This document shows, one piece after another, positions 1-27,700 of a stretch of DNA of 64,000 bases (the first letter of the stretch is position 1; each line of letters begins with the position of its first letter). The notes under the pieces were generated by a model. That model saw nothing but the letters and a program-made list of their open reading frames with translations, had not been told where the DNA came from and ran no database searches. Source of the DNA: Antedon mediterranea (taxonomy: Eukaryota; Animalia; Echinodermata); contig NC_092673.1 of NCBI RefSeq assembly GCF_964355755.1, positions 19,341,648 to 19,405,647 of the forward strand, given 5' to 3'. The translations under genes were made by a program, and so were the position numbers.

Positions 1-254
1 GTTAATCAGTACATGCAGGTTATCCCCATCATCAGTGTGTATTTATATTATTATTTTTAGCCTAATGTTGTTAATCAGTGCATGCAGGTCATACCAACAT
101 CATTAGTGTGATATTGCAAAATAATTGTAATTCATTATATAAAAAAATGTTATAATAACTAATAAAGAAAATTACAATCTCTATAATTTTAAACTTTAAT
201 TAAATTTCTTCTTTGATAATATTATAAAAATAATGTACATCTTGTTTTAAATAC

Positions 255-604
255 CTTATTGATAGATTTCACAAGATCTGGTTGCGTCTTACAGATTTGT
301 TTAATTGTTTGCAAATCACTCCCGTACCACAAAGCTTCTTCTAATTTGTTCCTGTTAAAATGTAAGAAATAATGAATTATTACACTATTTTATGAAAATG
401 ATGATTGATGGAAATAATCAATATCATCATTATATTTGATGAGAATGAGCCCTTTAATTGTAATATTTATGATTTCATAATCTTTTAAGAAAGTTTTAAA
501 GTATTGCTAACTATTCAAACATTTTAATTTGTTTTTAACAGTTTACATATTGAAGCTGGTTATTTTTGTTGGATTTGAAATAAAAAACAAACGTACCTTT
601 CCAT
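255..604 (-). CDS. 5' coding exons of a divergently oriented paralogous ANK(-ROCO) gene; continues beyond the left window edge
   Basis: Mirror of 24378-24726. ATG at 604-602, exons 604-597 and 351-255 give MERNKLEEALWYGSDLQTIKQICKTQPDLVKSINK with intact splice sites, followed by the same 71-bp intronic minisatellite at the window start. Confidence 0.75.
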
Positions 605-763
605 TTCAAAAATACAGTGTGTTCATTTAACAATTATTAATACGGATAGCTTCTAGTGTAAAAGTAAGCCTACACATTCTGTTCTGAAAATATGAAAGGT
701 AAAACATAATTTCATCAGACAGAAACCTTTGCATTAAAGGCTACGACAATTCAATTGCACCGG

Positions 764-1272
764 TATGCTGGCATTACTGAATGAAGATGACCTGTATGCT
801 GGCATTACTGAATGAAGATGATCTGTATGCTGGCATTACTGAATGAAGATGATCTGTATGCTGGCATTACTGAATGAAGATGATCTGTATGCTGGCATTA
901 CTGAATGAAGATGACCTGTATGCTGGCATTACTGAATGAAGATGACCTATATGCTGGCATTACTGAATGAAGATGACCTGTATGCTGGTGTTACTGAATG
1001 AAGATGACCTGTATACTGGTGTTACTGCATGAAGATGACCTGTATGTTGGCGTTACTGAATGAAGATGACCTGTATGCTGGTGTTACTGAATGAAGATGA
1101 TCTGTATGCTGGTGTTACTGCATGTAGATGACCTGTATGCTGGTGTTAGTGAATGAAGATGATCTGTATGCTGGTGTTACTGCATGTAGATGACCTGTAT
1201 GCTGGTGTTACTGAATGAAGATGACCTGTATGCTGGTGTTACTGAATAAGATGACTCCTGTGCTAGCATTAC
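764..1272. repeat. 31-bp minisatellite (~16 copies)
   Basis: Unit ctgtatgctggcattactgaatgaagatga(c/t); period 31 (atgaagatga at 781, 812, 843). Confidence 0.95.
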
Positions 1273-2857
1273 AACATATTATACTTTAGATTTTTAAACT
1301 GTTATACTTGTTATTAAACAAATAAAGCATATTGTGTACATTGTGCGATTGTAAAATCTAAGTTTATCACCAAGTTGATATTAAACTGGCCATGGTCTCA
1401 TCTTTAAATATTTAAAAAATTATTTTGTTCATAATAATTGATTGACAGATCAACAACTGGAAACATTGTTTTGTGGATTCATTTTCCCAAACGGCAATTA
1501 TGACTTTTCTTTAATTAATACACAACAAATGGCTGCCATTCAGTTTGGCCCACTTTACTTTAAACCCCAAAAAAAAACAGCAAAAACATCCCTCTAGGCA
1601 ATTGTGAGTATCAGAAAAACATATCAGTTATTTGGTCAAAAATGTTGTTAATCTCTCTCTAGGCTGGGTGCCAGGGGCCGCCAGGGGGTCTAGAGGGCAA
1701 AGCCCCCGGAAGTAACGCGTTCTAGCGTCTTTTGAGGCCATTTTAATCAGATTTAGGGTAGCCACTTTTTCCATTTTTTATAATGCATAAATAAAATACT
1801 GCGTGCAAAAAAACCGATGCGCAATGATGACTGTGGCAATCCATTTCAATTTTAAAAATGAAGTGACCTTTAAAGTTCAAAATATGCCTATATTTATTGA
1901 GTATATTGTAGCATAGAAAATATACACAAATGTAAAACGTACCCACAGGCAGGAACTGAGCTAAGACATTTTTGAAAATTAGAGCTGATTATAGGTCCTG
2001 GAAAATGCACTTATTGTGCTTCGAAATATGAAATGAAATTTATAAGTACCTAAGAAAATTTTGAAAACTAGACCTGCAGGTCTTCAAAAATTGCATCTTA
2101 TAATTTGAAAACATCGGGCCTAGAGGCTTAAAAAAGTGGTTAATTGGGGTGGGTGGGTGGTGTGTGTCCGCAAGCGTAGACCATTTTCAGTCGTGAAAAT
2201 CAGTATACCTCGCAAGTGTATGTATGCTTACCATCTGGACTTTGAGTATGGTGAGACGTTCATGACATACAGGACATTGAAAACTTAATAACTAAACTAT
2301 AATAAGATGTTGTTGGCTAAGCGAAAATAGCATGTTTTTTGTTTAGTAATGTATGAAATATTTATTTTAGGTGCCCCACGGTACAGAGGGTTAATTGTAA
2401 ATTAAAAAATTGGTGAACATACGAATAATTAACATAACTTGTTTTTGCTGTAGCGTACGTCGATACACAGTACACAAAGTAACGGGAACGATTCGTACAA
2501 AGGCCAGACAAGTGCATTCTTTTGTTTAGTAGTTAGATCGCTGGCAAAATGAATGCATAGTGCATAATAATAGCCCTCTGACGTACTCACGGTCAATTGA
2601 ACGTCGTGGTTTTCTAGGTGCTGAAGCTACGAAGTGAACGTGAACAATGTGTATATTATTCCCCGACAAAACTTTGGTGGGAAAGCTAGTCTCCCGTAGC
2701 TCGTACTAGGACTTTTTGAAGTCGAAGTTCGAACTACGACTAAAGTCTGGTTTAAAGAATACGGGCGTATCACTGTACTATCAGACTAATATACCTTTTT
2801 TTATTTTCACGTCAGACATGTTTTGTTCAAAGATATTCAGCAGCCTAACTTCTGTGA

Positions 2858-5800
2858 TAGTCCATGGGCCAGGTCCAGTTTTTTGCGAAAGCAGTATCAA
2901 ATTGGTGGCAAATGCTACCATACATTTTTGGAAAGCTTAATATGTCTACTTTTCAGAAATCCATGATAGCAATGCCAATTGTACAGCTTAATAGTCATTT
3001 TTGAGGATTATATAACACCGCCTACGGAAAATATGCACCACAAAATTTTGGGGTAGGGGGTAACACTTTTGCTAATAACTTGGGATTTAATGAACAGATT
3101 TGCATTTTCTTGGTATCAATATGTAGTGTATAGACTGCTTAAGTGTAATATATTTTTCTAAGTAAATCCAACAATTATTGACGCCATTAGAGATCAGAAG
3201 GTCATTGAACTTTAGTAAAAAATGATTTTTTGTCTAATATTAACTTATAACTTTCAGTTTTTAACAAAAAAAATACAATAGATGTTATGCAAACTGATGT
3301 TTTCATGAACATATAGACCCAATAAACAAGAAAATTGAAGTTAAAGATTAACAAAATATGAATATGCTGTGTATTATGAAGAAATTTGTTGTTTTTAGTA
3401 ATTTGTAATCGTTTACAATTATGGGGTAGGGGGTAACATTTTTGCGAATAACTTACAATTTAGTTAACAGATTTTCATTTTCTTGCTATCAGTATGTAGT
3501 GTATAGATTGCCTAATTGTAATATACTTTTTAAAAATGAATCCCGCATTTATTGACATCTTTAGAGGTCAAAAGGTCACTGACCTTTAATAAAAAATGCA
3601 ATTTCTTCTAAATTAGCTTATAAATTTCAATTTTAAACACAAAAATACAGGAAATCTTATGCAAACTAATGTTTTCTTAAACCTATAGACACAATAAATA
3701 AGAAAATTGAATTTAACATTTTTTATAAATTGAATATGCTGTGCATTATAAAGAAACTTGTTCGTCATTAGTTATCTTTGACAATAATGGGGTAGGGGGT
3801 AACGTTTTTGCAAATAACTTAAGATTTAGTGAACAGATTTACATTTTCTTGTTATCAGTATGTAGTGTATGGATTTCTTTATTGTAATATGCTTTTAAAA
3901 AATGAATCGAACATCTATTGATGTCTTTTAGAGGTCAAAGGTCAATAACCTTTAATCAAAAATGCAATTTCTTCTAAATTAGCTTATAAATTTCAATTTT
4001 AAACACAAAAAATACAAGATATCTTATGCAAACTAATGTTTTCTTAAACCTATAGACACAATAAATAAGAAAATTGAATTTAACAAACAAATATTCTGTG
4101 AATTTATGAGGACATTCTGTCTGTTAATTATTATTAACAATTATAGGGTAAGGGGTTACATTTTTCCTAATAACTTTGTATTTAGTGATCACATTTGCAT
4201 ATTTTTGGTATTAATATGTACTGCGTAGTTTACCTAATTGTTATATTCATTGTGAAAAAATAAAACGTAACATATATTGACATCATTGTAGGTCAAATGG
4301 TCATTGAACATTTAAAGAAATGCAATTTCGTCCAAATTTAACATTAATAAAGTTTCAATATTTAACGCAAAAATACACCAAATCTAACTTTTTTTTTAAA
4401 CCTATAAAGACAATGGACAAGAAATTGAAGTTAAAGATTAAAAACAAATAAACATGTGTAATAATATTAGGAATTGTGACCGTAATAGTAATTTGTAATT
4501 ATTAAAAATTATGGGGTAAGGGGTAACATTTTTGGTAATAACTTTGAATTTAGTCAACATATTTTGCATTTCTAGGAACAAATAAGTAGTATATAAACTG
4601 TTTAATTGCTATATATTAAAAAATTATCAAAATGTTATTACCAATAGATTTATGTGGTTTTTAACTTATTAAACCTATAGAAAAAAATTCACCGTTTAGT
4701 ATTGTTATGGGGTACGAAATAACAAAATGCATGACTTTTTGGAAGCTATACATTATTTGATTTATTATTAATTAAAATAAATGAAATTTAAATACGAGGA
4801 TAATAAATAAACATATCCAGCTTCTGTGTTGTAAATTGTTTTTTATAATTTACATTCTAAACATTCAATTGTCTATAGTAATCATAGAAATTGTTTAGAT
4901 TACCAATTATATCTTTTATTTGTAACTGATAAGATATTCTAAGGTTATAATTGTTCATCTGGTTTGCAAATGCAAATGAGATAGTTTTCTAAACAAAACT
5001 GTTATGGTATTGTAATATTACAGGACAATTACATTTTACTTCATCTTGATTTAAAGAAAACAGTTAGTTTATTCAAACTCATTAATATGTCAATTTTTTA
5101 GATTTTCATATTAGCTGCAGTTCCACATCTTCCACATATGTTTGAAAGAACTGGGTATCTCTAAGTTTTCATATCGCAGTTTAAAGTATGTTCCATGTAT
5201 CTTGGCATGGTCGAAGGTGGTTGTAAGTTTTCCCCATTTTGATCAAGGTTACCATTAATATCTATTAACCAATGTTTTAACCAAGATCACTGGTGCAGCA
5301 TGTTACGGTCTTCAGTCTCTTTGTATTTTCTGGACTCCTGGAAAGGACCCAAAATATTGTGTCGAGAGAGACATTGACATGGAAATTAACAATTATATTG
5401 GAGGATAACTCTGACACAACCACCTAAAGTTAGGTGAGAAGGTCCAGTCAATACAATTTACACAGGAAGGAAAAATCTTATCTGGTACATCTTCAGAAGA
5501 GAGTCATGCATACTTTACATTTTCCTCATTGCTCACAGACGCCACTGAGCCAAATAGTGTTTCTATCCATTGTTGGATGCCCTTCACATCTCTAGAGAAT
5601 ACAGACTGAAGACTATAACGTGCTGTACCAGTGTACTTGGTTCTAGTATTTTCGTCAGCTTTTTCATAACATTTTTAAAGATATTAACGGTAACGTTGAT
5701 CAAAATCGGGAAACTTGCAAAGTATCACATTCCAAAATGTCAAGGAACATTGCACAAGATCATACTTCAGTTTGCGATAACAAAATCATGTCTTTTAAAG

Positions 5801-8359
5801 ATTTCTATATATACCCAGTTGTTTTAAATGATGTAGGCTTTACTGGAATTTGACGATGTAATAATAGAATTCATTTTTGAGAAAGTGTGAATTGCTAAAC
5901 TGCAGCTGATATGCAGATCTGAAACATTTACATATTGTTACGGAGTTCATTTTTGTAAACCAAGATACAGGAAAATGTCAGATGAACATTTATAGAAAAA
6001 GAATATCTTTTAAATACAAATTTAATTGGTAGGCCCTAGTGTCATTTTTAAAATTACTATATAAGTCGATTAATTGATTTAAAGTACAATCTGTAAAATA
6101 ATAACAATTTATACAGTATACAGTAGCCTAAAAACAGTAGCCGTAGGATGTATTTAAAAAATAACCAAATACCCTATCTAAAGTAGTGGAGCTGTAGCTT
6201 GGTGGTTAACATGCTTGCCTTCCAATCCCAAGTTCCCGGGTTCAATCCTGACCTAGTGCCAGGCTTGTAACTCACGACTCTTTCAACTCCACTCCTTAAG
6301 CCTTAAGTGAGACTTAGTTTATAATCACGATAAATTATAAAATAGTTTATCCACACTGTAATTTCACGATGAAATATATGTTTTTATAAAGCTCCTATCC
6401 TCATATTAAAACAAAATCATTAATTTTTTTTTCAATAATTTATACCCTCCAACAAGTCATGCATAATGTGTGCATTGTGTACCCCACAACAACACTAAAT
6501 ACTAAAATTTTGTCTACAGGCTTTAAATAAAACTACACAACCACTATTATTTGAGATCAAAATGTTGCATAATTTTTGGATATAACAATTTTTGATTAAA
6601 CAGTTTATACAGTACCCTACTTATTGTTACCAAGAAATGCAAAATATGTTCAATAAATTCAAAGTTATTAGCGAAAATGTTACCCCTTACCCCATAATTT
6701 TTAAGGATTACAAATTACTAATACGGTCAAAATTCTTCATATTGTTAGGGCCTATACATGTTTATTTGTGTTTAATCTTTAACTTTAATTTGTACTTGTA
6801 CATTGTCTTTATAGGTTTAAAAAAAAACACCAGTTTGTAATAGATTTGTTGTATTTTTGTGTTTAAAATTGAAACTTTATTAATGTTAAATTTGGACGAA
6901 ATTGTATTTTTTGTTAATGTTCAATGATCCTTTGACCTACAATGATGTCAATATGTTACGTTTTATTTTTTCAACATGAATAACAATTAGGCAACCTACA
7001 CAGTACATTATTAATACAAAAAAATGCAAATTTGATCACTAAATACAAAGTTATTAGAAAAAATGTTGCCCCTTACCCTATAATTGTTAATAACAAATTA
7101 TTAGTAACGGACAAAATTTCTTCATAAATTCATAGAATATTTGTTTGTTTAATTTCAATTTTCTTATTCATTGTGTCTATATGTTTAGGAAAACATCAAC
7201 ATAAGATCTTTTGTAAGTTTGTGTTTAAAATTGAAATATATAAGTTAATTTAGAAGAAATTGCATTTTTGATTGAAGGTCATTGACCTTTTGACCTCTAA
7301 AGACGTCAATAGATGCTGGATTCATTTTAAAAAAGTATATTACAATAATGAAATCCATACACTACATAATGATAACATAAAAATGTAAATCTGTTCACTA
7401 AATCTTAAGTTATTTGCAAAAACGTTACCCCCTACCCCATAATTGTCACAAATTACTAATGACTAACAAGTTTCTTTATAATGCACAGCATATTCAATTT
7501 AGAAAAAATGTTAAATTCAATTTTCTTATTTATTGTGTCTATAGGTTTAAGAAAACATTAGTTTGCATAAGATTTCCTGTTTTTTGTGTTTAAAATTGAA
7601 ATTTTTAAAACTAATTTAGAAGAAATTGCATTTTTTATTAAAGGTCAGTGACCTTTTGACCTCTAAAGATGTCAACAAATGCGGGATTCATTTTTAAAAA
7701 GTATATTACAATTAGGCAATCTATACACTACATATTGATAGCAAGAAAATGCAAATCTGTTAACTAAATTGTAAGTTATTTGCAAAAATGTTACCCCCTA
7801 CCCCATAATTGTAAACGATTACAAATTACAAAAACAAAAAAATGTCTTCATAATACACAGCATATTCATATTTTGTTAATCTTTAACTTCAATTTTCTTG
7901 TTTATTGGGTCTATATGTTCATGAAAACATCAGTTTGCATAACATCTATTGTATTTTTTTTGTTAAAAACTGAAAGTTATACGTTAATATTAGACAAAAA
8001 ATCATTTTTTATTAAAGTTCAATGACCTTCTGACCTCTAATGGCGTCAATAATTGTTGGATTTACTTAGAAAAATATATTACACTTAAGCTGTCTATACA
8101 CTACATATTGATACCAAGAAAATGCAAATCTGTTCATTAAATCCCGAGTTATTAGCAAACGTGTTACCCCCTACCCCAAAATTTTGTGGTGCATATTTTC
8201 CGTAGGCGGTGTTATATAATCCTCAAAAATGACTATTAAGCTGTACAATTGGCATTGCTATCATGGATTTCTAAAAAGTAGACATATTAAGCTTTCCAAA
8301 AATGTATGGTAGCATTTGCCACCAATTTGATACCGAAAAAATGTCTGGCCCATGGACTA
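2858..8359. mobile_element. Non-autonomous foldback DNA transposon with ~2.2-kb TIRs, Academ-like (TAG..CTA termini, 3-bp TSD)
   Basis: Termini tagtccatgggccag / ctggcccatggacta. TSD TGA (2855-2857, 8360-8362) is confirmed by the empty site in the right arm (~21748). Arms are built of ~365-bp subrepeats (ggggtagggggtaac at ~3050, 3421, 3788, 4142, 4511). The superfamily call rests only on termini and TSD. Confidence 0.85.
6188..6340 (+). mobile_element. tRNA-derived SINE / pseudo-tRNA head (Gly-TCC-like) inside the foldback
   Basis: ggagctgtagcttggtggttaacatgcttgccttccaatcccaagttcccgggttcaatcc with A box (tagcttggtgg) and B box (ggttcaatcc). The acceptor stem is not intact, so this is not a functional tRNA. 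Confidence 0.6.
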
Positions 8360-9765
8360 TGACCTTTGTAACAGACATTAGTAGGTTTGAAATTACCTTT
8401 TAACTCAAGTTTATTGAACAATTCATGTGCTATTAAACGAGAGGCCTGAAAGGTAAGTGATAACATAGGCAGAATTTGAGCAAAAGATAGTATCACCCTT
8501 GTAGTGTGTGCACCAAGATTAGCTTTTAAGCCTCTGAATTTTGAATTAAAATCTGTAATTTTATTGTATTGCAATTTTTGCTGTACAGTAAAATTAAAAT
8601 AGTCAGAAAACACTTGTTTCAATGGATGCAACTGGGTTGCCATGAACCAACATTTCCAAACAAAGTATTGCTATTCCTGTAATTGTCATAAAACAAAGCA
8701 CAATTATGTAAGTCAAATTAAATATTCTGTAAAAATAATATAAAAACTCACATTACAACTGAATCTGAACAACACAATTGTTGGTACCCTACCCTGGAAA
8801 CAATCCTCCATCCACTGGTAAATCAGTTCGACTGAAAAGCTCTACATAAACACGCTACTTGACTATAAGGTGTTTATAATTGTCACTGCTTCTGTGCGTC
8901 ACATGACTTCCCAATCAGTCTTGCATGCTAGCCTATAATAGAAAATATAAGTCTTGTTTACCTATCTATCGTTTGCAAACTTAATATAAACAAAGATATC
9001 GTTAGGAAGATATCATAATTCATATTCAACCAATGTAAACAAACGAATTATGGGCGGAGCCAGAGCCATATATAAAGAGTTACAACATTGGGTTAAACTT
9101 CAAAGTCATGTGATATACAGAGCAAACTTTTTCAAAATTATCTCCATTAATGCATGTAAAGTATAGATTAGGAGCAACAAATACTTTAAACATTTTCTTA
9201 TATTTTTAAAAATGTAATTGCATATTTGATGGTGAATTATTGATGTGCAAAGTGTACAGAAGTACTTGCTTGCGCTAGTACATTATAAGATTTATTGATT
9301 TTGGAACAAAACATCACATAACTATGTATATTTTTAATTCATAATAGATGCTTTGCTGATTAAATAAAATTAATAAAGTGTCGTGGATATACTGTATTTG
9401 TTAATAATATTTTGTGCTTTAGGATAATAATGTGTATTTTGATTACCAGGAATTGTTTAGGTATAAAAAACAATTTATATTAAAGTGCTAGTGCCACACT
9501 TTCGACAAATACGACATTTACTATTATCAGTATCAAGAATAATATATGTAGATACTGTGTTAAATTGAGTTTCAATAATAAATTGTTATATATATGAAAA
9601 AAAAAGCAATATGTGTGTCGTTATTTGGTCACGAAATGTTACCTTTCGACATTTGTATGTGACGTCACAGCCAGAACACCGACGATCGCGAGGAGGAACT
9701 AACCTGCATCTTGCGCCTTATAACACACCCCGCGGCGATCACAACAAGCTTACTGAATATTTGTT

Positions 9766-10813
9766 ATGGATTCCGAAAGCGATTTAGAAAGTGTTTCATC
9801 AGATAGACCTAGTAGTAGTAGTTCATCATCAAGTGATGAGGAAAATGGTACTGGCCTTATAATACCATATAATTTCGAACCACGTTTTGAGGAACATGAA
9901 TTACAAGACATTGATGAAGAAGCCCAAGGTGAAGATGTTGACATGATGGCTGCACGCCTGGATAATTTAGAATGGTAGGTGTTCCCCTTGTGGTTGTTGT
10001 AGTGAAGCGTCTGCTTGATTGGGCTAGGCCTAATTAATCAATCGAAGCTAGAGCTACCTCAGTGTTTCTAAATTCTAAATATACAATCGGTTTTTTTTTT
10101 TCAAATTTTGTGAGATGCCATACGTTAATATAAAGTCCCCATCGTAATTTGTTTGATGATTATTAGATGGGTCGGATTTGGGACGGTGGTTTAATAATAG
10201 GCTACTCCTTGGGCTTGGGTTTGGTTATAATAATAGATGGACTAGGCCTAAAGTATTAATATTAATATTCTGGTCATAGTTCAAATGGGCATTTGAATTT
10301 CACTTGCTTGAGTGACTGCTGATATGATCAACTAATTATAATCATAATAATTAGTTTTATAATGACTAAATACATGTTTTCATCTTGTTCAGGTGTTCCT
10401 GTGAACATTGCCAAATCATGGGCTCAGGGGAAGAGTGCATCTGCTGCAAGGAGTGCGAAAACACAAGTGCTAAACTTGAAGACAATGTCAATCTGTTCAA
10501 CAATGATGCTCCATTCTCCTGCATCACAAATCATCCAGGTTTCAAGTCTGTTGCTCTTGACCCTTGGGTGCTGGAAGTAGCATGGCTTTCGTATAAGCAA
10601 CACTATGATAAGAAAGTTATCTATAACGGACCAAAAAACAAAAAGTACCGTCACATATCGTACAGACAGTATGCCCGATGGATACATGGATATGTCGGAA
10701 AAAATATCCGTATAGTGCTTCCGTCTTGTGTTGTCTCTTGCATAAGAGCACATTTCCCACCACCTGGAGATGACCCGGTGTTTACAGGATTTAAATTACC
10801 TGACCTAAATTAA
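9766..10813 (+). CDS. KolX-type accessory protein (P2X7 cytoplasmic ballast-like Cys-rich domain), 209 aa, two exons
   Basis: Exons 9766-9974 (GAA TG|gtaggt) and 10393-10813 (ttgttcag|G TGT) total 630 nt in frame. Motifs WCSCEHC, ECICCKEC, CITNHPGF, YRHISYRQYARWIHGYVGKNIRIVLPSCVVSCIRAHFP. Confidence 0.88.
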
Positions 10814-11088
10814 AACAGCCATAGCAGCATTTTAATTTTCTTATACTATTTAGTATTAGTTTAGTAATTTTTGGAAATTAAATAAAGTAATAATTTATAC
10901 AATTTGTAACTCATTTTGATTTTATTGCTTCTCTCATTCATATACATCTCCAATACATTGTTATTGGGGAAAAAATGAAATAGTCTGAAAATACAGTACA
11001 TTGTGAATATTTCAACAATTTTATTATGTCTACAATAATATGCTGTGTTCAATTCATTTATATGATTAATAAACATGGTGTCAAGTTA

Positions 11089-14000
11089 TTACTGGTTTTT
11101 AAACCGGCTTGTATGTTGGGCAACTGCAGCACTTTTTTCAGGTCTTTCAAATGCTGCGCACAATGATGGTGGTATGGTCTCTGTAAATGCATCTAGATTT
11201 GGTTCCATAACAATCTCAAGAAGACTCTTGAATAACTCATCAACATAATTATATGTACATTCTGTTAAAAGTTTTTTAACAATGTAACCCCCTTTCTTGT
11301 ACTTAGGAAATGATATTACGTATTGCTTTTCTCCAGCCTTATTTACCATTTGTTCTCTGGTACTGTTCTCATTATAGTGAAGAGCAGCTATGAAAAGTCG
11401 ACTCTTCATTCCACTATATGAAAAGTGGAACATTTTAGGAGCGAAATGATTAATAATAGACCAGTCGGATCTGGAGGCAGGTGTCACTTTTCTGCAGAAT
11501 TTTCCAAACCAACTTTTTCTAGTGCATTTTTTGACGTAGATTACGAATCTGGTTGTTGATCGGACTAACGTGGGGGCTTTTTAAAGATATAAACGTTTAA
11601 AATCTTGATTTTTGAGAGCCGAAATTAATCAAAATAAAACAAATTTAGACAATAGAGGGCGCACTTTCTACATAATTATGAGTAAATTGGATTAAAAAAG
11701 ACTTCGTTGCTGTTAATTTTATTCACGTAAATGTGAAAATAATTTATAAATCTGATCGGTTTTATATGCTGAAATTGTTTTAGTAATACACTGTGTAGTA
11801 TAAAGTTAGTTAGAACTTTTCATTTTCGCGTTTTCAGTGATCAAAAATGATATTGTCTAGGCCCGAATATGAATGCTTCCAGCGTACGACGTATGTAAAC
11901 AAAGGACGTTTAAACCGCGATGACCGCATATAAAGTTCGCTCAAGTGAATAGTGGGTAGGCTTTTACTAGCCTAGCGTATTGTGACCGTATGCATGAAAC
12001 ATCTTTCTCTAGCTTATTTTGCATGCAGCGCTAGCTTTACATAAACATGTGTACTACTGTTTTTAAATTTTTTCCCCCGATTTTTAGGTGGTGTAAGGGC
12101 CTAGAACTTATATTATTATTACTGACAGGCTTCTAGAGTAGGCTACTACTATACTACTAGGCCTAGTACTGGTGTAGTAACTAGCTGGCATAATAATAGC
12201 GTAGGTGTAGATGTATTATGGTGTCGTGTGTGTAGTCTTACAGCTAAAACATTTATTTTTGTATACATAAATCTAATAAATGCTGTGTACTACTACCCGT
12301 ATATTCAGCTGATTATAATATAACAATACATTCAGCAACCCTATCAACCAACGATTTCTCACAGGTGACATCATTGTTCATAATTAGAGGTGCTATTTAT
12401 CATGAATGTTATGTGCGAGAGTATACCATTTCCAGCCATCTAGAGGTGTCATTTAACCAAATTTGCTTCGCCCCTCCAGATTTAGGATGGCTTTTAGGTA
12501 AGGGTGGAATTAAACGACATTAAACTCATTACAAACGTATCAGATTAACATAATTCGTTTTTGCTGTAGCATACGTCGATACACAGTACATAACGTAACC
12601 GTCAGTAAACTTCGCCTGGAAAGTAATACTACGACACATTTTGGTCCCTGGATGGAATATGATATCACGCGTTTGGACACAACGTTGAACGATTCGTACA
12701 AAGGGATACCGCCAGACAAGTGCGTACCTATTGTTTAATAGTTGGATAGCTGGCAATAATGAATGCATAATAGCCCTCCGACGTACTCGCGGTCAATGGA
12801 ACGTCGCGGTTTTCTAGGCGCTGAGGCTACGAAGTGAACGCCAACGATTTTTACAGTATTCCCCGACTCGACAAAAAGTACCTGTGTTCCCAGATATGGG
12901 ATAGGCTCCCCGACGAGGGGATAGAGCCCATGCGGATACACAGTTGATGATCTTAACCTGGATGTTTTACTATTTTCATGAGATTTAAAACATATTTTTT
13001 CTTAGAATATGCCAATTGCGCATTCTTTTGACATCATACTTTACTAACTTATGACGTCATAGGTACGTTATATGGTAATTTAAATATTAATTGGAAAGTT
13101 TAATACCACATTTATATAGCGGCTATTCTGAATTTATGCTAATTAACCTTTTTGATGTCTGACCGTATCATGTTCATTTCAACAGGAAAATGTTAGAAAA
13201 TTGTTTTCCTGCGGTTTCTACATTTTTTTTAGCATAGGATAATGTCATTTAAGCAGTTATAACATAATATATGACGTCACAACTACCTTATGACGTCATA
13301 GTTACGTCATATGCTAATTTAAATATGCTAGTTTGAAAGTTTAATGTCACATTTATATTTACTCGTAATGCACTTAGGTGGTCTAAAACCAACCGTTGAG
13401 GAGATATGGGAACTTCAAATGGTAAATGGCGGCCATTTTGAATTTATGCCAATTAACCCACTTTCCGGTGTCCGATTTCGATAAATTTTGGATATGATGT
13501 TTATTTGGACTATATCAACTAGACAACACATTTCTGTTGCATTTAACATATCTAAACGATTTCCTCTTCATAAAATGACTTATTTGACCTAATTTGACCT
13601 TTGACCCTTCATATCTCAAAAACGCCCCCTCCCCGTCGCGATCAACATTCATATTCGTATTCTACAGCCAAAATTACCTCAGAAAAAGTACATGAAGTAA
13701 ATTCTGCAAAAAGTGACACCTACACCTCAAATACGACTGGTCTATAAGGCTATGGTACCCTTCCACTGATGACGTTTGCCCATGAGGTGAAGAATTGCGA
13801 ATGTCCTTCACCAACATTTTGGTTTCAACAAATTTTTGTAAGGCATCACAAGCTTCAGTATCAGCAGTCAACCACTTTGTTAACCGTTGGTCTGAAGGAG
13901 ACATTACCGGATGGGCACATTCCGTATATGGTTCAGGATGTCCAGTATGAAGATTTTGTACATGTCTTACCACAGACTTCCACTTTGCTTCAATGATATC

Positions 14001-16179: not shown

Positions 16180-16524
16180 ATTGATTTATTATAATAGATA
16201 AATAAAAAAGTAGCTGACAATAATAATAGTTGAAAATAACAATTAGTACCAGTAGAAAGCAGTATACAGTATATATTATTAGTAGTAAACCAGCGTCTCA
16301 TGCATGCACGTGTGTTGTTTTAAAAGGCGGAAGTAGAATGTCTTCTGCCTGTGACGTCACGCTTATAAAGTACGAGGGCATATTAACGTTCCTAATTAAG
16401 AGGTGATTACGGCCATACCGTTAAAAGTAGGTCAATGCAAATTTCGGTCAAGATTTATAGACATTAAGTCTACCCAAAAAATCATTAACATCTTAATTTA
16501 AAGTCTGTGGCACTAGCACTTTAA

Positions 16525-16756
16525 AGATATATCGTCACCTGGAAAATATATATATATTTTTCTTGAATATGCAATTTTAATGTCATAATAGTTATTCACT
16601 TTGACCAAAAATTGGAGCGAAAATAAAATTGTTTACCTGAAAATAATGCAAAAAATAGTCAAATTATCAGACAATGGGTTGAAACTGCAGAATTCCCTAT
16701 TCAAAGTTTGATTTTATTAATCTTCATTTTTCATGTTTTTGGGGGACAATATATCC
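16525..16756. mobile_element. Short TTAA-type MITE abutting the Kolobok end
   Basis: Degenerate TIR agatatatcgtcacc / ggggacaatatatcc. It shares the left TTAA with the Kolobok; the right TTAA is absent. Confidence 0.5.
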
Positions 16757-18327
16757 AGTACCCTGTGGACCCCTGTTGAATAAATTTGAACCTGGTGAAC
16801 TTAAGAACAACAATAATTAATGTTTAAATTTAAGCAACAACAAAATAAAGCTTATTGACTGATGATTGACAGTTTGGATTTATTTGTCATTGTCATGATA
16901 ATAAAACAATTTATAATAAAAAAGTAAACAAAATGTTTTTATTGTTCATGTGGATTGTTATTTTTTGTTTAATTTTGCATAAAGCATGCACACTACTCAC
17001 AGATAGTGTATCTTAGTTTCATTATGCAAATTACGATTTTGTAGGTTAGATATTCATAATTAGGTGATACATTTGATATAAGGGCACTCTCCATACTAAT
17101 GGGGAATTTAGGTGTAAGTTTCATTTTGATTGGTTCAGAAATGGTAATGGTAACATGCATAGTGAACAGGCTTGTTGTGGTTTTTGTTTATTATATATAA
17201 TTTAAATTTATATAAATTAATTAATAATTAAGTTAATATAAATATCAGGATAAGGATAAAACTGGTCAACAATTGTGGACAAATATTTCACTGTAACCTA
17301 TCACCATCCTCAGTATTCTATTTCCTATGGTGACATCCAGAAGAAGATTAGTTGAAATCGGAATTAGAATGCTGTGAGGGTATCACTGAAATATTCATTA
17401 AAAAAATATCATGTTGTTTACAACTAACACATAAGAATAATCATTTGTGAATTTAAATACTTGGTAATATCATGAAGGAAATTACAGGAAAAAGATTACA
17501 TTATTTTTTCCTCCATGATAGTACACAGTGTGTCTTGCTTTTGTGACGTGTGTACACTCTTTTATTGACTTAACCAACTTGACTGTTAACATGTTCTTTA
17601 CAAAAGGTTCTTTGTTAATATAAGTATGCAAGACCATGGATTAAAGAATAGAAGGATATGCATCGACGTGAGATCAAGGGTTCCTTGACTCTCGCCGACA
17701 GACTGCGGACCGCCCACAATGTTACAGTTTAATTAACCGCATGGTAACAACGAAACGGTCGCGTGCCTAATACTGTGTATTGTTTACTGCACATGTGCAA
17801 CGACATTTAACCTTGTTGTTGACTGCGCTTCTTTCGCACGTTCTCTGTTGCCCTGTATGTATTCATACATATTTGAACAGTATAATCAGTGCCGTAACGG
17901 CTATGTGCGCTCACTGGCTAAATCGAAGCTTGGGGCCCATGAGCAGTGCCCAGAGGAACAGGCATAAAATATGTCGAAAATGCTAAAAACGTCCGAGGCC
18001 TCAATCTTTGAAACTTGGAGGGCCACTTAGGTTTCCTAAACAAGTGGCTTCAGGCCTCTGCCTCATGCCACTGAGTATAATGTTTATTGAAAACAGTTAT
18101 TAAATTACATTGTATGTTATTGTGAAGACCCTAGTGTAGGCCTACTTCATCAATATACCAGATAAAAACAATACTATATTGTTATTGGCTTAGAATTGTA
18201 GATGCTATAATTGTATTAGTATAGGTTTCTGCCGCGATTGATCTACGCTAATGTTTTTATGACATTAAAGTAGCATTTTATGACCTGTAGTAGCCCTACA
18301 TCTGAGACAATAACTATTTATTTGTTG

Positions 18328-19842
18328 GTATTGTACTACCTTACTTTATGATCCATTTATTAATAGACTAAAACGCACTGCTTCCCCAGGGCTGTTAGTC
18401 AGGGTATTTGTGTGGGGTATTGTACTACCTTACTTTATGATCCATTTATTAATAGACTAAAATGCACTGCTTCCCCAGGGCTGTTAGTCAGGGTATTTGT
18501 GTGGGGTATTGTACTACCTTACTTTATGATCCATTTATTAATAGCCTAAATGCACTGCTTCCCCAGGGCTGTTAGTCAGGGTATTTGTGTGGGGTATTGT
18601 ACTACCTTACTTTATGATCCATTTATTAATAGACTAAAATGTACTGCTTCCCCAGGGCTGTTAGTCAGGGTATTTGTGTGTGGTATTGTACTACCTTACT
18701 TTATGATCCATTTATTAATAGACTAAAATGTACTGCTTCCCCAGGGCTGTTAGTTAGGGTATTTGTGTGGGGTATTGTTAACCTTACTTTATGATCCATT
18801 TATTAATAGACTAAAATGCACTGCTTCCCCAGGGCTGTTAGTCAGGGTATTTGTGTGGGGTATTGTACTACCTTACTTTATGATCCATTTATTAATAGAC
18901 TAAAATGCACTGCTTCCCCAGGGCTGTTAGTCAGGGTATTTGTGTGGGGTATTGTACTACCTTACTTTATGATCCATTTATTAATAGACTAAAATGCACT
19001 GCTTCCCCAGGGCTGTTAGTCAGGGTATTTGTGTGGGGTATTGTACTACCTTACTTTATGATCCATTTATTAATAGACTAAAATGCACTGCTTCCCCAGG
19101 GCTGTTAGTCAGGGTATTTGTGTGGGGTATTGTACTACCTTACTTTATGATCCATTTATTAATAGACTAAAATGCACTGCTTCCCCAGGGCTGTTAGTCA
19201 GGGTATTTGTGTGGGGTATTGTAATACCTTACTTTATGATCCATTTATTAATAGACTAAAATGCACTGCTTCCCCAGGGCTGTTAGTCAGGGTATTTGTG
19301 TGGGGTATTGTAATACCTTACTTTATGATCCATTTATTAATAGACTAAAATGCACTGCTTCCCCAGGGCTGTTAGTCAGGGTATTTGTGTGGGGTATTGT
19401 ACTACCTTACTTTATGATCCATTTATTAATAGACTAAAATGCACTGCTTCCCAGGGCTGTTAGTCAGGGTATTTGTGTGGGGTATTGTACTACCTTACTT
19501 TATGATCCATTTATTAATAGACTAAAATGCACTGCTTCCCCAGGGCTGTTAGTCAGGGTATTTGTGTGGGGTATTGTAATACCTTACTTTATGATCCATT
19601 TATTAATAGACTAAAACGCACTGCTTCCCCAGGGCTGTTAGTTAGGGTATTTGTGTGGGGTATTGTACTACCTTACTTTATGATCCATTTATTAATAGAC
19701 TAAAATGCACTGCTTCCCCATGGCTGTTAGTCATGGGTATTTGTGTGGGGTATTGTAATACCTTACTTTATGATCCATTTATTAATAGACTAAAATGCAC
19801 TGCTTCCCCAGGGCTGTTAGTCAGGGTACTTGTGTGGGGTAT
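18328..19842. repeat. 89-bp minisatellite (~17 near-identical copies) in the spacer of the inverted duplication
   Basis: Unit gtattgtactaccttactttatgatccatttattaatagactaaaatgcactgcttccccagggctgttagtcagggtatttgtgtggg; period 89. Confidence 0.95.
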
Positions 19843-21039
19843 GCAGATAGTTTAGTTTAGTTCTGTAGTTATAATGCTTTATATTTCACATGACAGAAGA
19901 TTGTAAAAATCTGTTGAATCAGTAAGTTTGTCTAACCTGCATAACATAATGCCACACTCATTTTGGTAGAAATACACCAGGAGTAGATCCAGGATTTAGA
20001 GGGGACGGCTAATAATAGACTGGGGAAAGAAGCCTAGGCCCCTTGGTTCTAATCAAAATTTTAAAATGTCCTCTTTCGCCATGCTTTTATAAAGTCTCCC
20101 ACCATTTAATTTTTATGATTTCGGACCTCCACATACTAAAATGGCAGTGCGAAATAACACTTTTGGTTTTTAATAGTAAATTAACAATAAATGATATCAT
20201 TATTGAATAAAGAATTGTTTATCTCATAATAAATATATTTAATTCAAAATAACGTTCTGTTCTTATTATCCATTTTTTTATCCATAATTGTTATTTTAAA
20301 ATATTTTGTATAAAACTGGTAGATTGCTCACAATAAAATACAAACAGTAGTTTTTGTTTCATTATGCAAAGTATGATTTTTTTTTAATTAATAATTTATA
20401 ATTAGGTGATACATTTTAATATAGCTTCTAAGTGCATTCTCCATACCAATTTATGATAAAAAAATAAATAAAATTAATGTGATGTGAAGTAGGATTGGCC
20501 TTCCCATGGATATCTTTTTCCCTTCTTGATATACCTTACCAATAATTAACCAGTATATAGGCCAATAAATAATATTATAAATACTATTATCACAACATAA
20601 AATGGCATAGTAGGCCTCTATTAACCAAACAGAGTCTCCTAATTACCCTTAGTATAAATTGTTTTTTATAACAATTCCTGGTAATCAAAATACACATACT
20701 ATTCTGAAGCACAAAATATTATTAAGAAATATATCCACAACACTTTATTATTTTATTTAATCAGCAAAGCATCCATTATGAATTAAAAAAATACATAGTT
20801 AAGTGATGTTTTGTTCCAAAATCAATAAATCTTATAATGTACTAGCCCAAGCAAGTACATCTGTACAATTTGCACCTCAATAATTCACCGTCAAATATGC
20901 AATTACATTTTTAAAAACATAAGAAAACGTTTAAAGTATTTGTTGCTCCTAATCTATACTATGTGTTAATGGAGATAATTTTGACACAATTTGATCTATA
21001 TACAGTATCATGCGACTTTAACCCAATGTTGTAACTCTT

Positions 21040-21330
21040 TACATATGGCTCTGGCTCCGCCCATAATTCGTTCGTTTACATTGGTTGAATAGGAATTATG
21101 ATATCTTTCTAATATACTATCTTTGTTTATATGAAGTTTGCAAACTGTAGATAGGTAAACAAGACTTATATTTTCTATTATAGGCTAGCACGCAAGACTG
21201 ATTTAAGGAAGTCATGTGATGCACAGAAGCAGTAACAATTATAAACCCCTTATAGTCAAGTAGCGTGTTTATGTAGAAATTTTCAGTCGAACTGATTTAC
21301 CAGTGGATTGAGGATTGTTTCCAGGGTAGG
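21040..21330 (+). promoter_or_regulatory. Candidate promoter and first non-coding exon of the ANK-ROCO gene (mirror at ~8785-9075)
   Basis: GC box ctccgccc (~21054), inverted CCAAT attgg (~21080) and a possible donor ccagg|gtaggg (~21325), retained in both arms. The exon 24299-24385 has an acceptor, so an upstream UTR exon is required. The location is inference. Confidence 0.3.
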
Positions 21331-23365
21331 GTACCAACAATTCTGTTTTTCAGATTCAGTTGTAGTGTGAGTTTTTATATTATTTTAACAGAATATTTAA
21401 TTTTGACTTACAGAATTGTGCTTTATTTTATGACAATTACAGGATTAGCAATACTTTGTTTGGAAACGTTGGTTTATGGCAACCAGTTGCATCCATTGAA
21501 GTGTTTCTCAACTATTTTATTTTTACAGCAAAAATTGCAATACAATAAAATAACAGATTTTAATTCGAAATTCAGAGGCTTTAAAAGATAATCTTGGTGC
21601 ACACACTACAAGGGTGATAACTATCTTTTGCTCAAATTCTGCCTATGTTATCACTTACCTTTCAGGCCTTTCGTTTAATAGCACATGAATTGTTCAATAA
21701 ACTTGAGTTAAAAGGTAATTTCAAACCTACTAAGGTCTGTTACAAAGGTCACAGAAGTTAGGCTGCTGAATATCTTTGAACAAAACATGTCTGACGTGAA
21801 AATAAAAAAAAGTATATTAGTCTGATAGTACAGTGATACGCCCGTATTCTTTAAACCAGACTTTAGTCGTAGTTCGAACTTCGACTTCAAAAAGTGCTAG
21901 TTCGAGCTACGGGCTCAAGCCCCCCTTGCCAGAGAGACTAGCTTTCCCACCAAATTTTTGTCGGGGAATATAATATACTGCACATTGTTCACGTACACTT
22001 CGTAGCTTCAGCACCTAGAAAACCGCGACGTTCAATTGACCGTGAGTACGTCAGAGGGCTATTGTGCACTTTATGCATTCATTATCGCCAGCGATCTAAC
22101 TACTAAACAAAAGAATGCACTTGTCTGGCCTTTGTACAAATCGTTCGCGTTACTTTGTGTACTGTGTATCGACATACGCTACAGCAAAAACAAGTTATGT
22201 TAATTATTCGTATGTTCACCAATTTTTTAATTTACAATTAATCCTCTGTACCGTGGGGCACCTAAAATAAATATTTCATACATTACTAAACAAAAAACAT
22301 GCTATTTTCGCTTAGCCAACAACATCTTATTATAGTTTAGTTATTAAGTTTTCAATGTCCTGTATGTCATGAACTTCTCACCATACTCAAAGTCCAGATG
22401 GTAAGCTTACATACACTTGCGAGGTATACTACTGAAAATGGTCTACGCTTGCGGACACACACCACCCACCCACCCCAATTAACCACTTTTTTAAGCCTCT
22501 AGGCCCGATGTTTTCAAATTATAAGATGCAATTTTTGAAGACCTGCAGGTCTAGTTTTCAAAATTTTCTTAGGTACTTATAAATTTCATTTCATATTTAA
22601 TTTCATTTCATATTTCGAAGCACAATAAGTGCATTTTCCAGGACCTATAATCAGCTCTAATTTTCAAAAATGTCTTAGCTCAGTTCCTGCCTGTGGGTAC
22701 GTTTTACGTTTGTGTATATTTTCTATGCTACAATATACTCGATAAATATAGGCATATTTTGAACTTTAAAGGTCACTTCATTTTTAAAATTGAAATGGAT
22801 TGCCACAGTCATCATTGCGCATCGGTTTTTTGCACGCAGTATTTTATTTATGCATTATGAAAAATGGAAAAAGTGGCTACCCTAAATCTGATTAAAATTG
22901 CCTCAAATGACGCTAGAACGCGTTACTTCCGGGGGCTTTGCCCTCTAGACCCCCTGGCGGCCCCCTTGCACCCAGCCTAGAGAGAGATTAACAACATTTT
23001 TGACCAAATAACTGATATGTTTTTCTGATACTCACAATTGCCTAGAGGGATGTTTTTGCTGTTTTTTGGGGGTTTAAAGTAAAGTGGGCCAAACTGAATG
23101 GCAGCCATTTGTTGTGTATTAATTAAAGAAAAGTCATAATTGCCGTTTGGGAAAATGAATCCACAAAACAATGTTTCCAGTTGTTGATCTGTCAATCAAT
23201 TATTATGAACAAAATAATTTTTTAAATATTTAAAGATGAGACCATGGCCAGTTTAATATCAACTTGGTGATAAACTTAGATTTTACAATCGCACAATGTA
23301 CACAATATGCTTTATTTGTTTAATAACAAGTATAACAGTTTAAAAATCTAAAGTATAATATGTTG

Positions 23366-24221
23366 TAATGCTAGCACAGGAGTCATCTTCATTCAGTAAC
23401 ACCAGCATACAGGTCATCTACATGCAGTAACACCAGCATACAGATCATCTTCATTCAGTAACACCAGCATACAGGTCATCTACATGCAGTAACACCAGCA
23501 TACAGATCATCTTCATTCAGTAACACCAGCATACAGGTCATCTTCATTCAGTAACGCCAACATACAGGTCATCTTCATTCAGTAACACCAGCATACAGGT
23601 CATCTTCATTCATTAACACCAGCATACAGGTCATCTACATTCAGTAACACCAGCATACAGGTCATCTTCATTCAGTAACACCAGCATACAGGTCATCTTC
23701 ATTCAGTAACACCAGCATACAGGTCATCTTCATTCATTAACACCGGCATACAGGTCATCTTCATTCAGTAACACCGGCATACAGGTCATCTTCATTCAGT
23801 AACACCAGCATACAGATCATCTTCATTCAGTAATGCCAGCATACAGGTCATCTTCATTCAGTAATGCCAGCATACAGATCATCTTCATTCAGTAACGCCA
23901 GCATACAGGTCATCTTCATTCATTAACACCGGCATACAGGTCATCTTCATTCAGTAACACCGGCATACAGGTCATCTTCATTCAGTAACACCAGCATACA
24001 GATCATCTTCATTCAGTAAACACCAGCATACAGATCATCTTCATTCAGTAATGCCAGCATACAGGTTATCTTCATTCAGTAACACCAGCATACAGGTCAT
24101 CTTCATTCAGTAACACCAGCATACAGATCATCTTCATTCAGTAACACCAGCATACAGGTCATCTTCATTCAGTAACACCAGCATACAGATCATCTTCATT
24201 CAGTAATGCCAGCATACAGGT
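23366..24221. repeat. 31-bp minisatellite (~27 copies), inverted paralogue of 764-1272
   Basis: Unit ggtcatcttcattcagtaacaccagcataca. Confidence 0.95.
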
Positions 24222-24377
24222 GCAATTGAATTGTCATAGCTTTTTTAATGCAAAGGTTTCTGTCTGATGAAATTATGTTTTACCTTTCATATTTTCAGAA
24301 CAGAATGTGTAGGCTTACTTTTACACTAGAAGCTATCAGTATTAATAATTGTTAAATGAAGACACTGTATTTTTGAA

Positions 24378-24726
24378 ATGGAAAGGTACGTTTGTTTTTT
24401 ATTTCAAATCCAACAAAAATAACCAGCTCCAATATGTAAATGTTAAAAACAAATTAAAATGTTTGAATAGTTAGCAATACTTTAAAACTTTCTTAAAAGA
24501 TTATGAAATTATAAATATTACAAATAAAGGGCTCATTCTCATCAAATATAATGATGATATTGATTATTTCCATCAATCATCATTTTCATAAAATAGTGTA
24601 ATAAATCATTATTTCTTACATTTTAACAGGAACAAATTAGAAAAAGCTTTGTTGTACAGGGGTGATTTGCAAACAATTAAACAAATTTGTAAGACGCAAC
24701 CAGATCTTGTGAAATCTATCAATGAG
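24378..24726 (+). CDS. Start exon and N-terminal capping ankyrin exon of the ANK-ROCO gene
   Basis: ATGGAAAG|gtacgt (24378-24385) joins ttttaacag|G AAC...AAT GAG|gtataa (24630-24726), giving MERNKLEKALLYRGDLQTIKQICKTQPDLVKSINE. It ends in phase 0 and so joins any downstream GxTPLH exon. Confidence 0.75.
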
Positions 24727-27700
24727 GTATAATATTATCAAAGAAGAAATTTAATTAAAGTTTAAAATTATAGAGATTGTAATTTTCTTTATTATTTATT
24801 ATAACATTTTTTTATATAATGAATTACAATTATTTTTCAATATCACACTAATGATGTTGGTAAGACCTGCATGCACTGATTAACCACATTAGGCTAAAAA
24901 TAATAATATAAATACACACTGATGATGGGGATAACCTGCATGTACTGATTAACCACATTAGGCTAAAAATAATAATATAAATACACACTGATGATGGAGG
25001 TATAACCTGCATGTACTGATTAACCACATTAGGCTAAAAATAATAATATAAATACACACTGATGATGTTGGTATAACCTGCATGTACTGATTAACCACAT
25101 TAGGCTATAAATAATAATATAAATACACACTGATGATAGGGGTATAACCTGCATGCACTGATTAACCACATTAGGCTAAAAATAATAATATAAATACACA
25201 CTGATGATGGAGGTATAACCTGCATGTACTGATTAACCACTTTAGGCTAAAAATAATAATATAAATACACACTGATGATGGGGGTATAACCTGCATGTAC
25301 TGATTAACAACATTAGGCTAAAAATAATAATATAGATACACACTGATGATGGGGGTATAACCTGCATGTACTGATTAACAACATTAGGCTAAAAATAATA
25401 ATATAAACACACACTGATGATGGGGGTATAACCTGCATGTACTGATTAACAACATTAGGCTAAAAATAATAATATAAATACACACTGATGATGGAGGTAT
25501 AACCTGCATATACTGATTAACCACATTAGGCTAAAAATAATAATATAAATACACACTGATGATGGAGGTATAACCTGCATGCACTGATTAACAACATTAG
25601 GCTAAAAATAATAATATAAATACACACTGATGATGGGGGTATAACCTGCATGCACTGATTAACCACATTAGGCAAAAATAATAATATAAATACACACTGA
25701 TGGGTATGGCAAGCCTCAGCTGTCTGGAGTATTCAAAATATTATATTATTATATCAGAGGTCCCAAATTGGGAAAGTCCATTCGCAGGAGATTTTGTCGT
25801 GAACCACATTCAATTCGTCGGGGCGTCGAAAGTCAACGCGCAGGGAATCGAAAATCAACACGCGTGTCGTTTACGTCTCTTAATTAATTAACTAAATATG
25901 TTACATATACAGTATATACAATATTTACACATAAGTTTGCTTAATTTTTACATAGGTTTATCCATCAGTATTTTTACATTCTTATTTTTTTTATGGACAC
26001 ATCCTCAGTACAAAGAATTAAAAAAATATATACTGTATTTTAACTAAAATTCAGTATATAAAATAATTTAACTTAATTACATAGGCACAGGCCTAGCCTA
26101 GGGCTTCTACTAGGCCCTAGCTAGCTACCATTTTAACCCCCCCCCCCCCAAAAAAAAAATAATAATAAGAAATAACTATTCCGAATCCGTCTTATGCTAC
26201 ATTACGCGAGTTAACATATTATTTCAGATGAAAAACATTGAGTTTTATATTGTTTTATCCATACGTAATTACACTGGCATTAAAGATATAACATTAAAAT
26301 GTAGGCCGTTTATGAGCTATTTCGCCGATTTCTTATCGCTGGGAAATTCCCCACCATCGACATCGATCGAGGAGTAGGCCTAGGCTAGAATAGAGGCCTA
26401 GCGTGCATGCCGGAACGGGTGGATTATTGCTATATAAATAACAAGTTTGAACAAAAGAGCTTACAACAATCTTAGGTAAATTTTTATTAAACGTAGGCCT
26501 ACTTGCTTGGCGAATCCATATGCTCGTATTATCGGATCGTACAGTAAAACCAAATAAAACACCGCCTCAACAACCTCGTGCGATGTGCGATCTGTTGTTC
26601 TTTGCAGCGGATCAACATTGGTAGAGTCCATTAATTATGAGGGTGTTTAAAAATGTAATAACTATTAAAAACGTGTCTCAATCACTGTGTAATCAAAGCG
26701 TTTATTTAGTTAAAACTTGGATCCTCCCAAAATTGATAATCGCGTATTCCGGTGACCACGTGATTGATTCACGGTTGGTTGCACGCTCTTTTTTTTCTAC
26801 GTCCGGCGTGTAGTAACCGTGCATGTTTATATTATTGTTACGGTTTAACAAAGGCAGTGCATACAAATAAAAATACAATAATAGACCACAGAGACTGCAT
26901 GAATAGACATTGTTTCAACATCCTGCCTCACTTTTGTCTAGTTATTTATTGATTATTGTTGACCTGGGCTGAGCCTGGGTGTAACCGTAAATCAATTTGG
27001 CCAAAAATATGGGGAAATTTGAAAATGCGGTAAAAAAAATCAAAATGCGGTAGAAAACGTTGAGATAGCGGTAGCGCGGTAGATGGGTTCTAAAAGCGGT
27101 AGACTACCGCGAGTAGCGGTAGACTTGGGACCCCTGTTTTCACGCTACATCACAAGAGAGGACTCAATCAGATATAAAGCAAGCAGCAATTTTAGGACTA
27201 TAGTTTATAGGTCCCAGCTGCTGGACCCAAAAAACATCTGGGAAAAGTGTCTATGAGGGTTCACGGTTGAACGATTTTGGATTCTTGCCCTTTGATTGGT
27301 TGACTTCAATGCAAATGGTTTAACCTAAATTTGTTATCGTATCTAGTTTAACTTAATTATGATATTAGTTTCATTGGGTGTTAAAAATCAGTACCAAAAG
27401 TATGTACCAACTTTCTCTACCATTGAGTAAATATTCTAGAAGTTGCACTTAATTTACTGAAATTTCTCATTACGCAAATTTATATATAAATTCATTAAAC
27501 TGCTTATTGGCCTCATATTTTTAATATCTGAACATTTGTTTGTACAATTTTATGAAAGTATTTTTTCTCATTACGCAAATTTATATATTAATTAAGTAAT
27601 AGGCTAACAAATCTCTAGATCTGATCCATGGTAAGATAATCTATTAAACCCAATTTCACATAATGTCTGTTGTCGGTATTATACACCAGCAAATTTGCAA

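Follow-up and report, generated by a model that had tools for sequence, protein, structure and literature searches.

A 64,000-nucleotide stretch of the Antedon mediterranea genome (NCBI RefSeq assembly GCF_964355755.1, contig NC_092673.1, positions 19,341,648 to 19,405,647 of the forward strand; referred to here as the window, in whose coordinates all positions are given) carries a large inverted repeat whose arms contain homologous 5′ exons of two members of an ankyrin-ROCO gene family, characterized by ankyrin repeats, a Roc GTPase domain, a COR domain, and a DED-like C terminus. The account that we favor, with modestly better than even confidence, is that the starts of two clustered ROCO paralogs lie head to head near the end of a Kolobok transposon, that they were homogenized once in the past, and that they have drifted since. 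An earlier note on this DNA had described a palindromic gene pair with ongoing arm-to-arm conversion. Some past homogenization is indeed indicated, but arms that are 94 to 99% identical and differ in an insertion and in their repeat arrays lend little support to conversion that is ongoing or to a palindrome of the human Y type. Overall, the inverted repeat is genuine, but as an inverted paralog pair it is not very unusual, and the ankyrin-cassette family to which it belongs is the more interesting subject.

Self-BLAST recovered three inverted blocks (1 to 2857 and 8357 to 9483 against 24953 to 20649; E = 0.0 for the main blocks). Global alignment with the left-arm insertion removed paired 1 to 2857 plus 8360 to 9483 with the reverse complement of 20649 to 24953. 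Both agree with the repeat proposed earlier at 1 to 9483, minus a 5.5-kb insertion, against 20650 to 24960. The outer part of the left arm (1 to 2857, minus strand) mirrors 21748 to 24953, and its inner part (8360 to 9483, minus strand), with a predicted promoter and untranslated region (UTR) exons, mirrors 20649 to 21750. The right arm (20649 to 24953, plus strand) contains a predicted promoter and UTR exons followed by an ATG exon and an N-cap exon. Homology is unbroken from 9483/20649 out to the edge of the window, which falls inside a 71-bp minisatellite array of the left arm; the visible arm is a minimum of the left arm's extent. The insertion itself (2858 to 8359; 5,502 bp) is a foldback-like DNA element found in the left arm only, with TAG...CTA ends, a 3-bp TGA target duplication, and ends of its own that form inverted repeats of ~1.9 kb with 366-bp subrepeats. 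It sits in a predicted 5′ UTR intron, within the zone of high identity. We found no intact transposase frame in its core, and the label “Academ-like,” which we take from its end sequences and the length of its target duplication, is provisional.

As had been claimed, the ATG and N-cap exons are present in both arms with intact splice sites. The ATG exon lies at 24299 to 24385 on the right (plus strand; ATG at 24378) and at 597 to 683 on the left (minus strand; ATG at 604), the N-cap exon at 24630 to 24726 (plus) and 255 to 351 (minus; open frame, AG/GT intact), and a candidate UTR exon at 21666 to 21714 (plus) and 8445 to 8397 (minus). Thus, homologous 5′ exons stand on opposite strands and point outward. 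When used as a query, the left N-cap matched three proteins, all of which have an N-cap followed by ankyrin repeats. The closest of these annotated A. mediterranea proteins, here P0014, joins its N-cap to ankyrin repeats and is one substitution and one deletion away, and the left N-cap type fits an annotated protein better than the right N-cap does. This near identity agrees with the earlier view that the arms are the head-to-head 5′ ends of two copies of an ANK-Roc-COR-DED family, and it speaks indirectly for a full gene behind the left N-cap. Each arm carries its own predicted promoter copy, 11 kb apart, and a shared bidirectional promoter was therefore rejected.

The two N-caps differ at 6/97 nucleotides, and five of the six differences are nonsynonymous, giving five amino acid changes. 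This density exceeds that of the noncoding outer arm (33/2,252; P = 0.005) and that of the local flanks (10/518; P = 0.028), a pattern compatible with selection on this copy or with input of sequence from another paralog. It also bears on whether the left copy is an orphan 5′ fragment, running from the promoter as far as the N-cap and lacking a gene beyond, which would be compatible with the account favored here. The family does include fragmentary models (P0014, 142 amino acids [aa]; P0015, 111 aa), the 5.5-kb element lies within the predicted UTR intron of this copy, and the window stops at position 1. However, the intact splice sites and frame, together with the excess of nonsynonymous differences in the N-cap, make an orphan fragment unlikely.

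Divergence between the arms changes in a single step. With minisatellite columns excluded from all step and clustering tests, one change point was located at 21588 in the right arm and 8522 in the left arm (support range, 21523 to 21646), which none of 300 permutations reached, and difference events amount to 7.7% inside it versus 2.3% outside. Substitutions alone account for 58/927 positions (6.3%) inside the step, 2/161 from the step to the insertion site, and 21/1,584 in the stretch from the insertion site to the minisatellite, and they rise again in the outermost part (16/615, or 2.6%, at 24222 to 24838). The corresponding identities, to which indels come in addition, are 93.7% for the inner arm and 97.4 to 99.1% for the outer arm, and the arms as a whole fall short of the >99% of Y- or X-type palindromes. 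The earlier note had the inner arms more diverged than the outer ones, and its spot counts are accurate: 9 substitutions and 1 indel at 8641 to 8780, where roughly 10 differences had been given, and 1 substitution and 1 indel at 1320 to 1620, where there were said to be few. The inner arms are indeed the more divergent, but with one step and a renewed rise at the outermost end, a smooth gradient from inner to outer was rejected.

Low divergence continues for 160 bp inward of the insertion site (P = 0.002 given the inner rate), and the 5.5-kb insertion therefore likely postdates the homogenized tract. Those 160 bp are not constrained across the family, as 8 and 16 substitutions set two contigs apart from the right arm in this stretch. 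Constraint on the UTR exon was rejected as the cause of the step, since other copies differ there.

Contigs from four public sequencing runs cover the right arm and its upstream flank (19900 to 24830) with many variants and allow a third-party comparison, for which we used the 23 listed contig pieces (of 32) contained entirely in the arm and set aside the other 9. Contig depths were not taken as copy numbers, there being no single-copy calibration. In the inner zone (7 pieces), divergence from the right arm is 6.6% for the contigs and 6.7% for the left arm; in the outer zone (16 pieces), the corresponding values are 3.7% and 1.1%. Because the contigs are as near as the left arm inside the step and further away outside it, in the promoter zone the arms would appear to be no closer to each other than family copies generally are, and only beyond it do they look like sisters, as is typical where a tract has been converted or duplicated anew. 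In a variant table restricted to 29 of the 40 rows shown (out-of-arm, high-copy-repeat, and one duplicate-position rows were left out), at 18 of the 29 sites, located both inside and outside the step, the two arms have an allele in common that sets them apart from other copies. The arms also have in common intronic stretches passed over by other copies (joints at 21924 to 22720 and 23218 to 23540).

A step of this kind could also arise with no exchange between the arms, if a single duplication placed a copy of a third paralog or of a recombined allele beside the right gene, so that the step marks a haplotype boundary that already existed. The patchwork composition of the family, in which exons of the right gene best match different paralogs (see below), is consistent with this, as are the many variant contigs over 19900 to 24830. 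However, a recombination breakpoint would be required by chance within the visible 4 kb, and the alleles shared by the arms on both sides of the step are what would be expected of long-standing neighbors. We consider this origin improbable.

Whether conversion between the arms continues is a separate matter. We regard as rather doubtful the proposal of a maintained palindrome in which continuing arm-to-arm conversion swaps ankyrin cassettes between both genes. The outer arms are 97 to 99% alike, share the intronic stretches skipped by other copies, and include a perfect run of 313 nucleotides (P = 0.033; 327 nucleotides and P = 0.016 if joined over the satellite), and their differences are mildly clustered (P = 0.032). 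These P values are marginal and post hoc, and the run and the clustering allow for later short conversion. However, 54 difference events persist in 2,374 outer columns, and neither the 5.5-kb insertion nor the five N-cap amino acid changes are shared. The earlier note had the same minisatellites in both arms. The families are the same (31 bp and 71 bp), but the 31-bp arrays differ, with 16.1 units on the left (759 to 1255) and 27.1 units in another variant order on the right (23382 to 24221). The 71-bp array has 12.2 units on the right (24839 to 25702), 3′ of the N-cap exon, and is truncated by the window edge on the left (1 to 115).

Set beside known inverted repeats, the visible part of this one is not a Y-type palindrome. 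According to the accessible part of one source on human Y palindromes (PMC3723533), arms kept alike by conversion are >99.9% identical, conversion tracts have a mean minimum of 2,068 bp and extend up to 9 kb, and crossover, which inverts the spacer, is rarer than conversion. As with the P6 palindrome described there, the Antedon arms are inverted around a spacer, and a multikilobase tract scale fits that inferred here. Unlike the P6 arms, which span tens of kilobases, those visible here measure ~4 kb and are 94 to 99% identical, with unshared insertions, and lie in a multicopy cluster. The available portion of a preprint on avian IGH (bioRxiv 10.64898/2026.09.05.749481) likewise links inverted copies in an immune locus, as this one may be in a broad sense, with gene conversion. 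In birds, however, conversion is described as somatic and AID-type with pseudogene donors, and the data here give no indication of somatic diversification.

The inner end of the left arm coincides exactly with the left end of a Kol0-type Kolobok transposon (9484 to 16520; 7,037 bp). The element is flanked by TTAA at 9480 to 9483 and 16521 to 16524, and its 15-bp terminal inverted repeats start with AG (AG...CT, consistent with 5′-RR...YY-3′). It carries a KolX/P2RX7_C gene on the plus strand (E = 4.9e-11) and, on the minus strand, a DDE transposase with a MULE-type match (E = 2.1e-5) and a DCWH (C/DxxH) motif. TTAA targets, 5′-RR ends, and a transposase paired with a KolX/P2X7-ballast gene are Kol0 features in the part of PMC9587614 available to us, and the element shares this target, these ends, and this gene pair. 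Its own transposase is broken by a nested 2.3-kb element (11457 to 13744), which has TAG...CTA ends and a 3-bp target duplication, the same end type as the left-arm insertion, and by a 22-bp tandem duplication (14398 to 14441).

A plain insertion of the Kolobok into a longer arm was rejected, since its removal extends no match: a score of 59 against a shuffled maximum of 49 comes with no clean alignment. Two contigs of one run (X7), by comparison, cross the homologous point on the right arm, and the left copy is therefore the broken one. Because TTAA is the obligate target, its presence on both sides need not mean that the flanks were once adjacent. A rearrangement at the transposon end is a plausible origin of the inversion, judged from the coincidence of boundaries; maize alternative transposition, as far as the accessible sources describe it, offers a precedent for rearrangement breakpoints that touch a transposon end.

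The same coincidence bears on an assembly artifact, in which a repeated Kolobok copy would have caused the second allele of the right gene to be attached backwards and to pass for the left arm. The block-wise divergence of 1 to 6% seen here falls within the range for alleles in polymorphic marine invertebrates. A mis-join would most likely fall at the transposon end, and the homology does not resume in the far flank. However, the window contains zero N gaps, the arms are not identical, the nested element and the 22-bp duplication should make this Kolobok copy distinguishable, and of the two N-cap types the left is the better match to an annotated protein. The private lesions of the Kolobok and the gap-free window make a mis-join less likely, and we hold it to be very improbable. 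A fold-back read chimera was rejected on account of the nonidentity of the arms.

For the favored account, the history would run as follows. Two family copies would have diverged to the ~6% usual for the family, and the upstream flank of the left copy would have been broken at the Kolobok end, probably in an inversion or deletion driven by the transposon, producing the head-to-head layout. One long conversion or re-duplication tract, from ~21588 outward over at least 3.3 kb, would then have made the outer arms sisters. Later drift would have brought the 5.5-kb element into the left copy, reshuffled the minisatellites, and produced the five amino acid differences in the N-cap.

Several points weigh against this history. 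The data do not fix the direction, number, or donor of the tract, and an identity step would also be expected had one copy come from a recombined allele or paralog without arm exchange. Five of the 16 outer contig pieces match the right arm as closely as the left arm does or closer, and may derive from the pair itself or from additional sister copies. The 32 listed pieces were chosen by length from >4,000, and the contigs are collapsed, mixing copies. The TTAA on both sides of the Kolobok is what a plain insertion would have. The left-arm junctions rest on assembled sequence, and the left gene body lies beyond the window edge. P0014 may be a different paralog, as no tested window exon is identical to an annotated protein. 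The accession of P0014 directly follows that of the Roc-COR model P0017, which is a mere hint of physical adjacency. Finally, both gene copies are known here from sequence alone; eight sequencing runs were listed in a run search, with no RNA run holding the sequence among them.

The right gene, modeled from the ATG at 24378, comprises 30 exons encoding 1,328 aa with no internal stop; an alternative last exon at 50871 gives a slightly earlier end, and another candidate last exon lies at 51572. In order, the model encodes the N-cap, nine ankyrin repeats of one exon each, a C-cap, Roc, COR, and a DED-like region. The nine ankyrin exons (27928 to 32331, plus strand) are in phase 0 and 105 to 111 nucleotides long, in tandem units of ~330 bp, and are followed by the C-cap exon (33234 to 33318, plus). 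The one ankyrin exon of the nine that was scanned scores 22.6 bits against Pfam Ank, above the cutoff, and the other eight are 69 to 89% identical to it. The Roc and COR exons (37777 to 46061, plus) include a P-loop (GQEGVGKT) and G3-like (WDHGGQ) and G4-like (THKG) motifs. The single P-loop exon reaches only E = 0.079 against Pfam Roc, and the 81%-identical paralog P0004 carries PF08477. COR follows Roc directly: exon 43926 to 44120 matches COR-A at E = 1.2e-7, just under the curated cutoff, and paralogs carry PF16095 (COR). The DED-like exon (50172 to 50711, plus) matches Pfam DED at E = 0.0023, below the curated cutoff, and PF01335 (DED) is carried by paralogs P0007, P0011, and P0022. The predicted fold of this exon is all-helical at low confidence (predicted local distance difference test score, 52.9), and a PDB sequence search with it returned two matches (E = 0.41), both irrelevant. 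By these sequence features the right gene is a ROCO, the DED-like part of which takes its name from a weak match. A GAT/AAC-rich intronic repeat (41088 to 41630) adjoins an acidic insert of the Roc domain, and the annotated protein P0016 has a D/N/H-rich repeat that resembles it.

The ankyrin array (27928 to 32331) is probably the most interesting feature of the window. Among the 36 pairs of its nine units, the 150 nucleotides upstream of the exon are 2.1% apart and the exons themselves 10.1% apart. Twelve of 30 alignable codons are variable, and 11 of the 12 change the amino acid; nonsynonymous differences (8.6%) exceed synonymous ones (2.6%) in pairs that are not independent of one another, and the interhelix loop varies in length. 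Together these patterns show unit turnover within the right array, with diversifying selection likely. The variation in the right array says nothing of exchange with the left gene. A truncated unit that precedes the array (27684 to 27708) retains just the exon tail and the donor, and a decayed unit follows the array (~32380 to 32466); both are signs of unit birth and loss. We also found an insertion of ~1.67 kb (28743 to 30409) in an intron of the array, with short inverted ends and CTATAG on both sides.

The family comprises ~20 Roc- or COR-bearing A. mediterranea models, many of which have accession numbers close together and therefore suggest one cluster. A query with P0006 gave 26 matches, 23 to A. 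mediterranea, 2 to Anneissia japonica, and 1 to Amphiura, and all 12 matches to the DED-like exon were A. mediterranea proteins. None of the annotated proteins tested exon by exon equals the right gene, and the window therefore probably comes from a haplotype, an individual, or a close species other than the one behind the annotated models. The DED-like exon is 98% identical to P0001/P0002, whereas upstream exons best match other paralogs; for example, exon 41694 is 98% identical to P0004 and exon 43926 is 87% identical to P0016. Judged by these matches, the family is already a patchwork at the exon level, and conversion donors therefore need not be the opposite arm. Other layouts occur among the related A. 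mediterranea models P0016, P0022, and P0028: ANK with a doubled Roc-COR unit, a DED-like domain at each end, or a kinase with a death domain. No paper on an ANK-ROCO expansion in crinoids or echinoderms was found by title or by the start of the abstract, in a search whose coverage most subscription journals fall outside.

The rest of the spacer (16525 to 20648) has no inverted match to the upstream flank of the right gene and includes an 89-bp satellite (18327 to 19842). An old similarity in direct orientation (16806 to 17247 against 20153 to 20592; score, 133 versus a shuffled maximum of 49) is perhaps a remnant of the upstream flank of another copy. Elsewhere in the window, a copia-type long terminal repeat retrotransposon (58289 to 62639, minus strand) is young, with 185-bp terminal repeats identical at 184/185 positions, and its pol region is split over two frames at ~59570 to 59700.

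The nearest parallel is found in brown algae, in which, according to the accessible text of two papers (PMC3341825; PMC11378527), clustered LRR-ROCO genes encode Roc-COR proteins that are candidate immune receptors; each repeat has its own exon, exons are shuffled, and the repeats are under diversifying selection. The Antedon genes resemble them in the clustering of Roc-COR genes, in single-exon sensor repeats, and likely in shuffling and positive selection, but here the repeats are ankyrin repeats (35 to 37 aa), the C terminus is DED-like, and the host is an echinoderm. The word “inverted” has no match in the text of PMC3341825 available to us, in which an inverted gene pair was looked for. 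By analogy, variable ankyrin arrays may act as ligand sensors coupled to the Roc GTPase and to DED-like signaling, and an immune role of the ankyrin-ROCO family can be predicted. A further idea, which we regard as a long shot, is that the head-to-head layout is an invertible cassette, part of a germline (perhaps somatic) deuterostome recombination system that diversifies ankyrin-based sensors. If so, crossover between the arrays would invert the intervening segment and swap promoters, N-caps, and proximal ankyrin repeats between two ROCO genes without loss of DNA, and cassettes would be copied one at a time by conversion.

Clustered gene families often contain inverted paralog pairs that have undergone conversion, and the repeat itself is thus modest news. 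The pair nevertheless gives a handle on an expanded crinoid ROCO cluster with one exon per ankyrin repeat, near-identical introns, and variable exons, and with its arm-specific markers it is a place where long reads from a few animals could give direct counts of cassette exchange and inversion.

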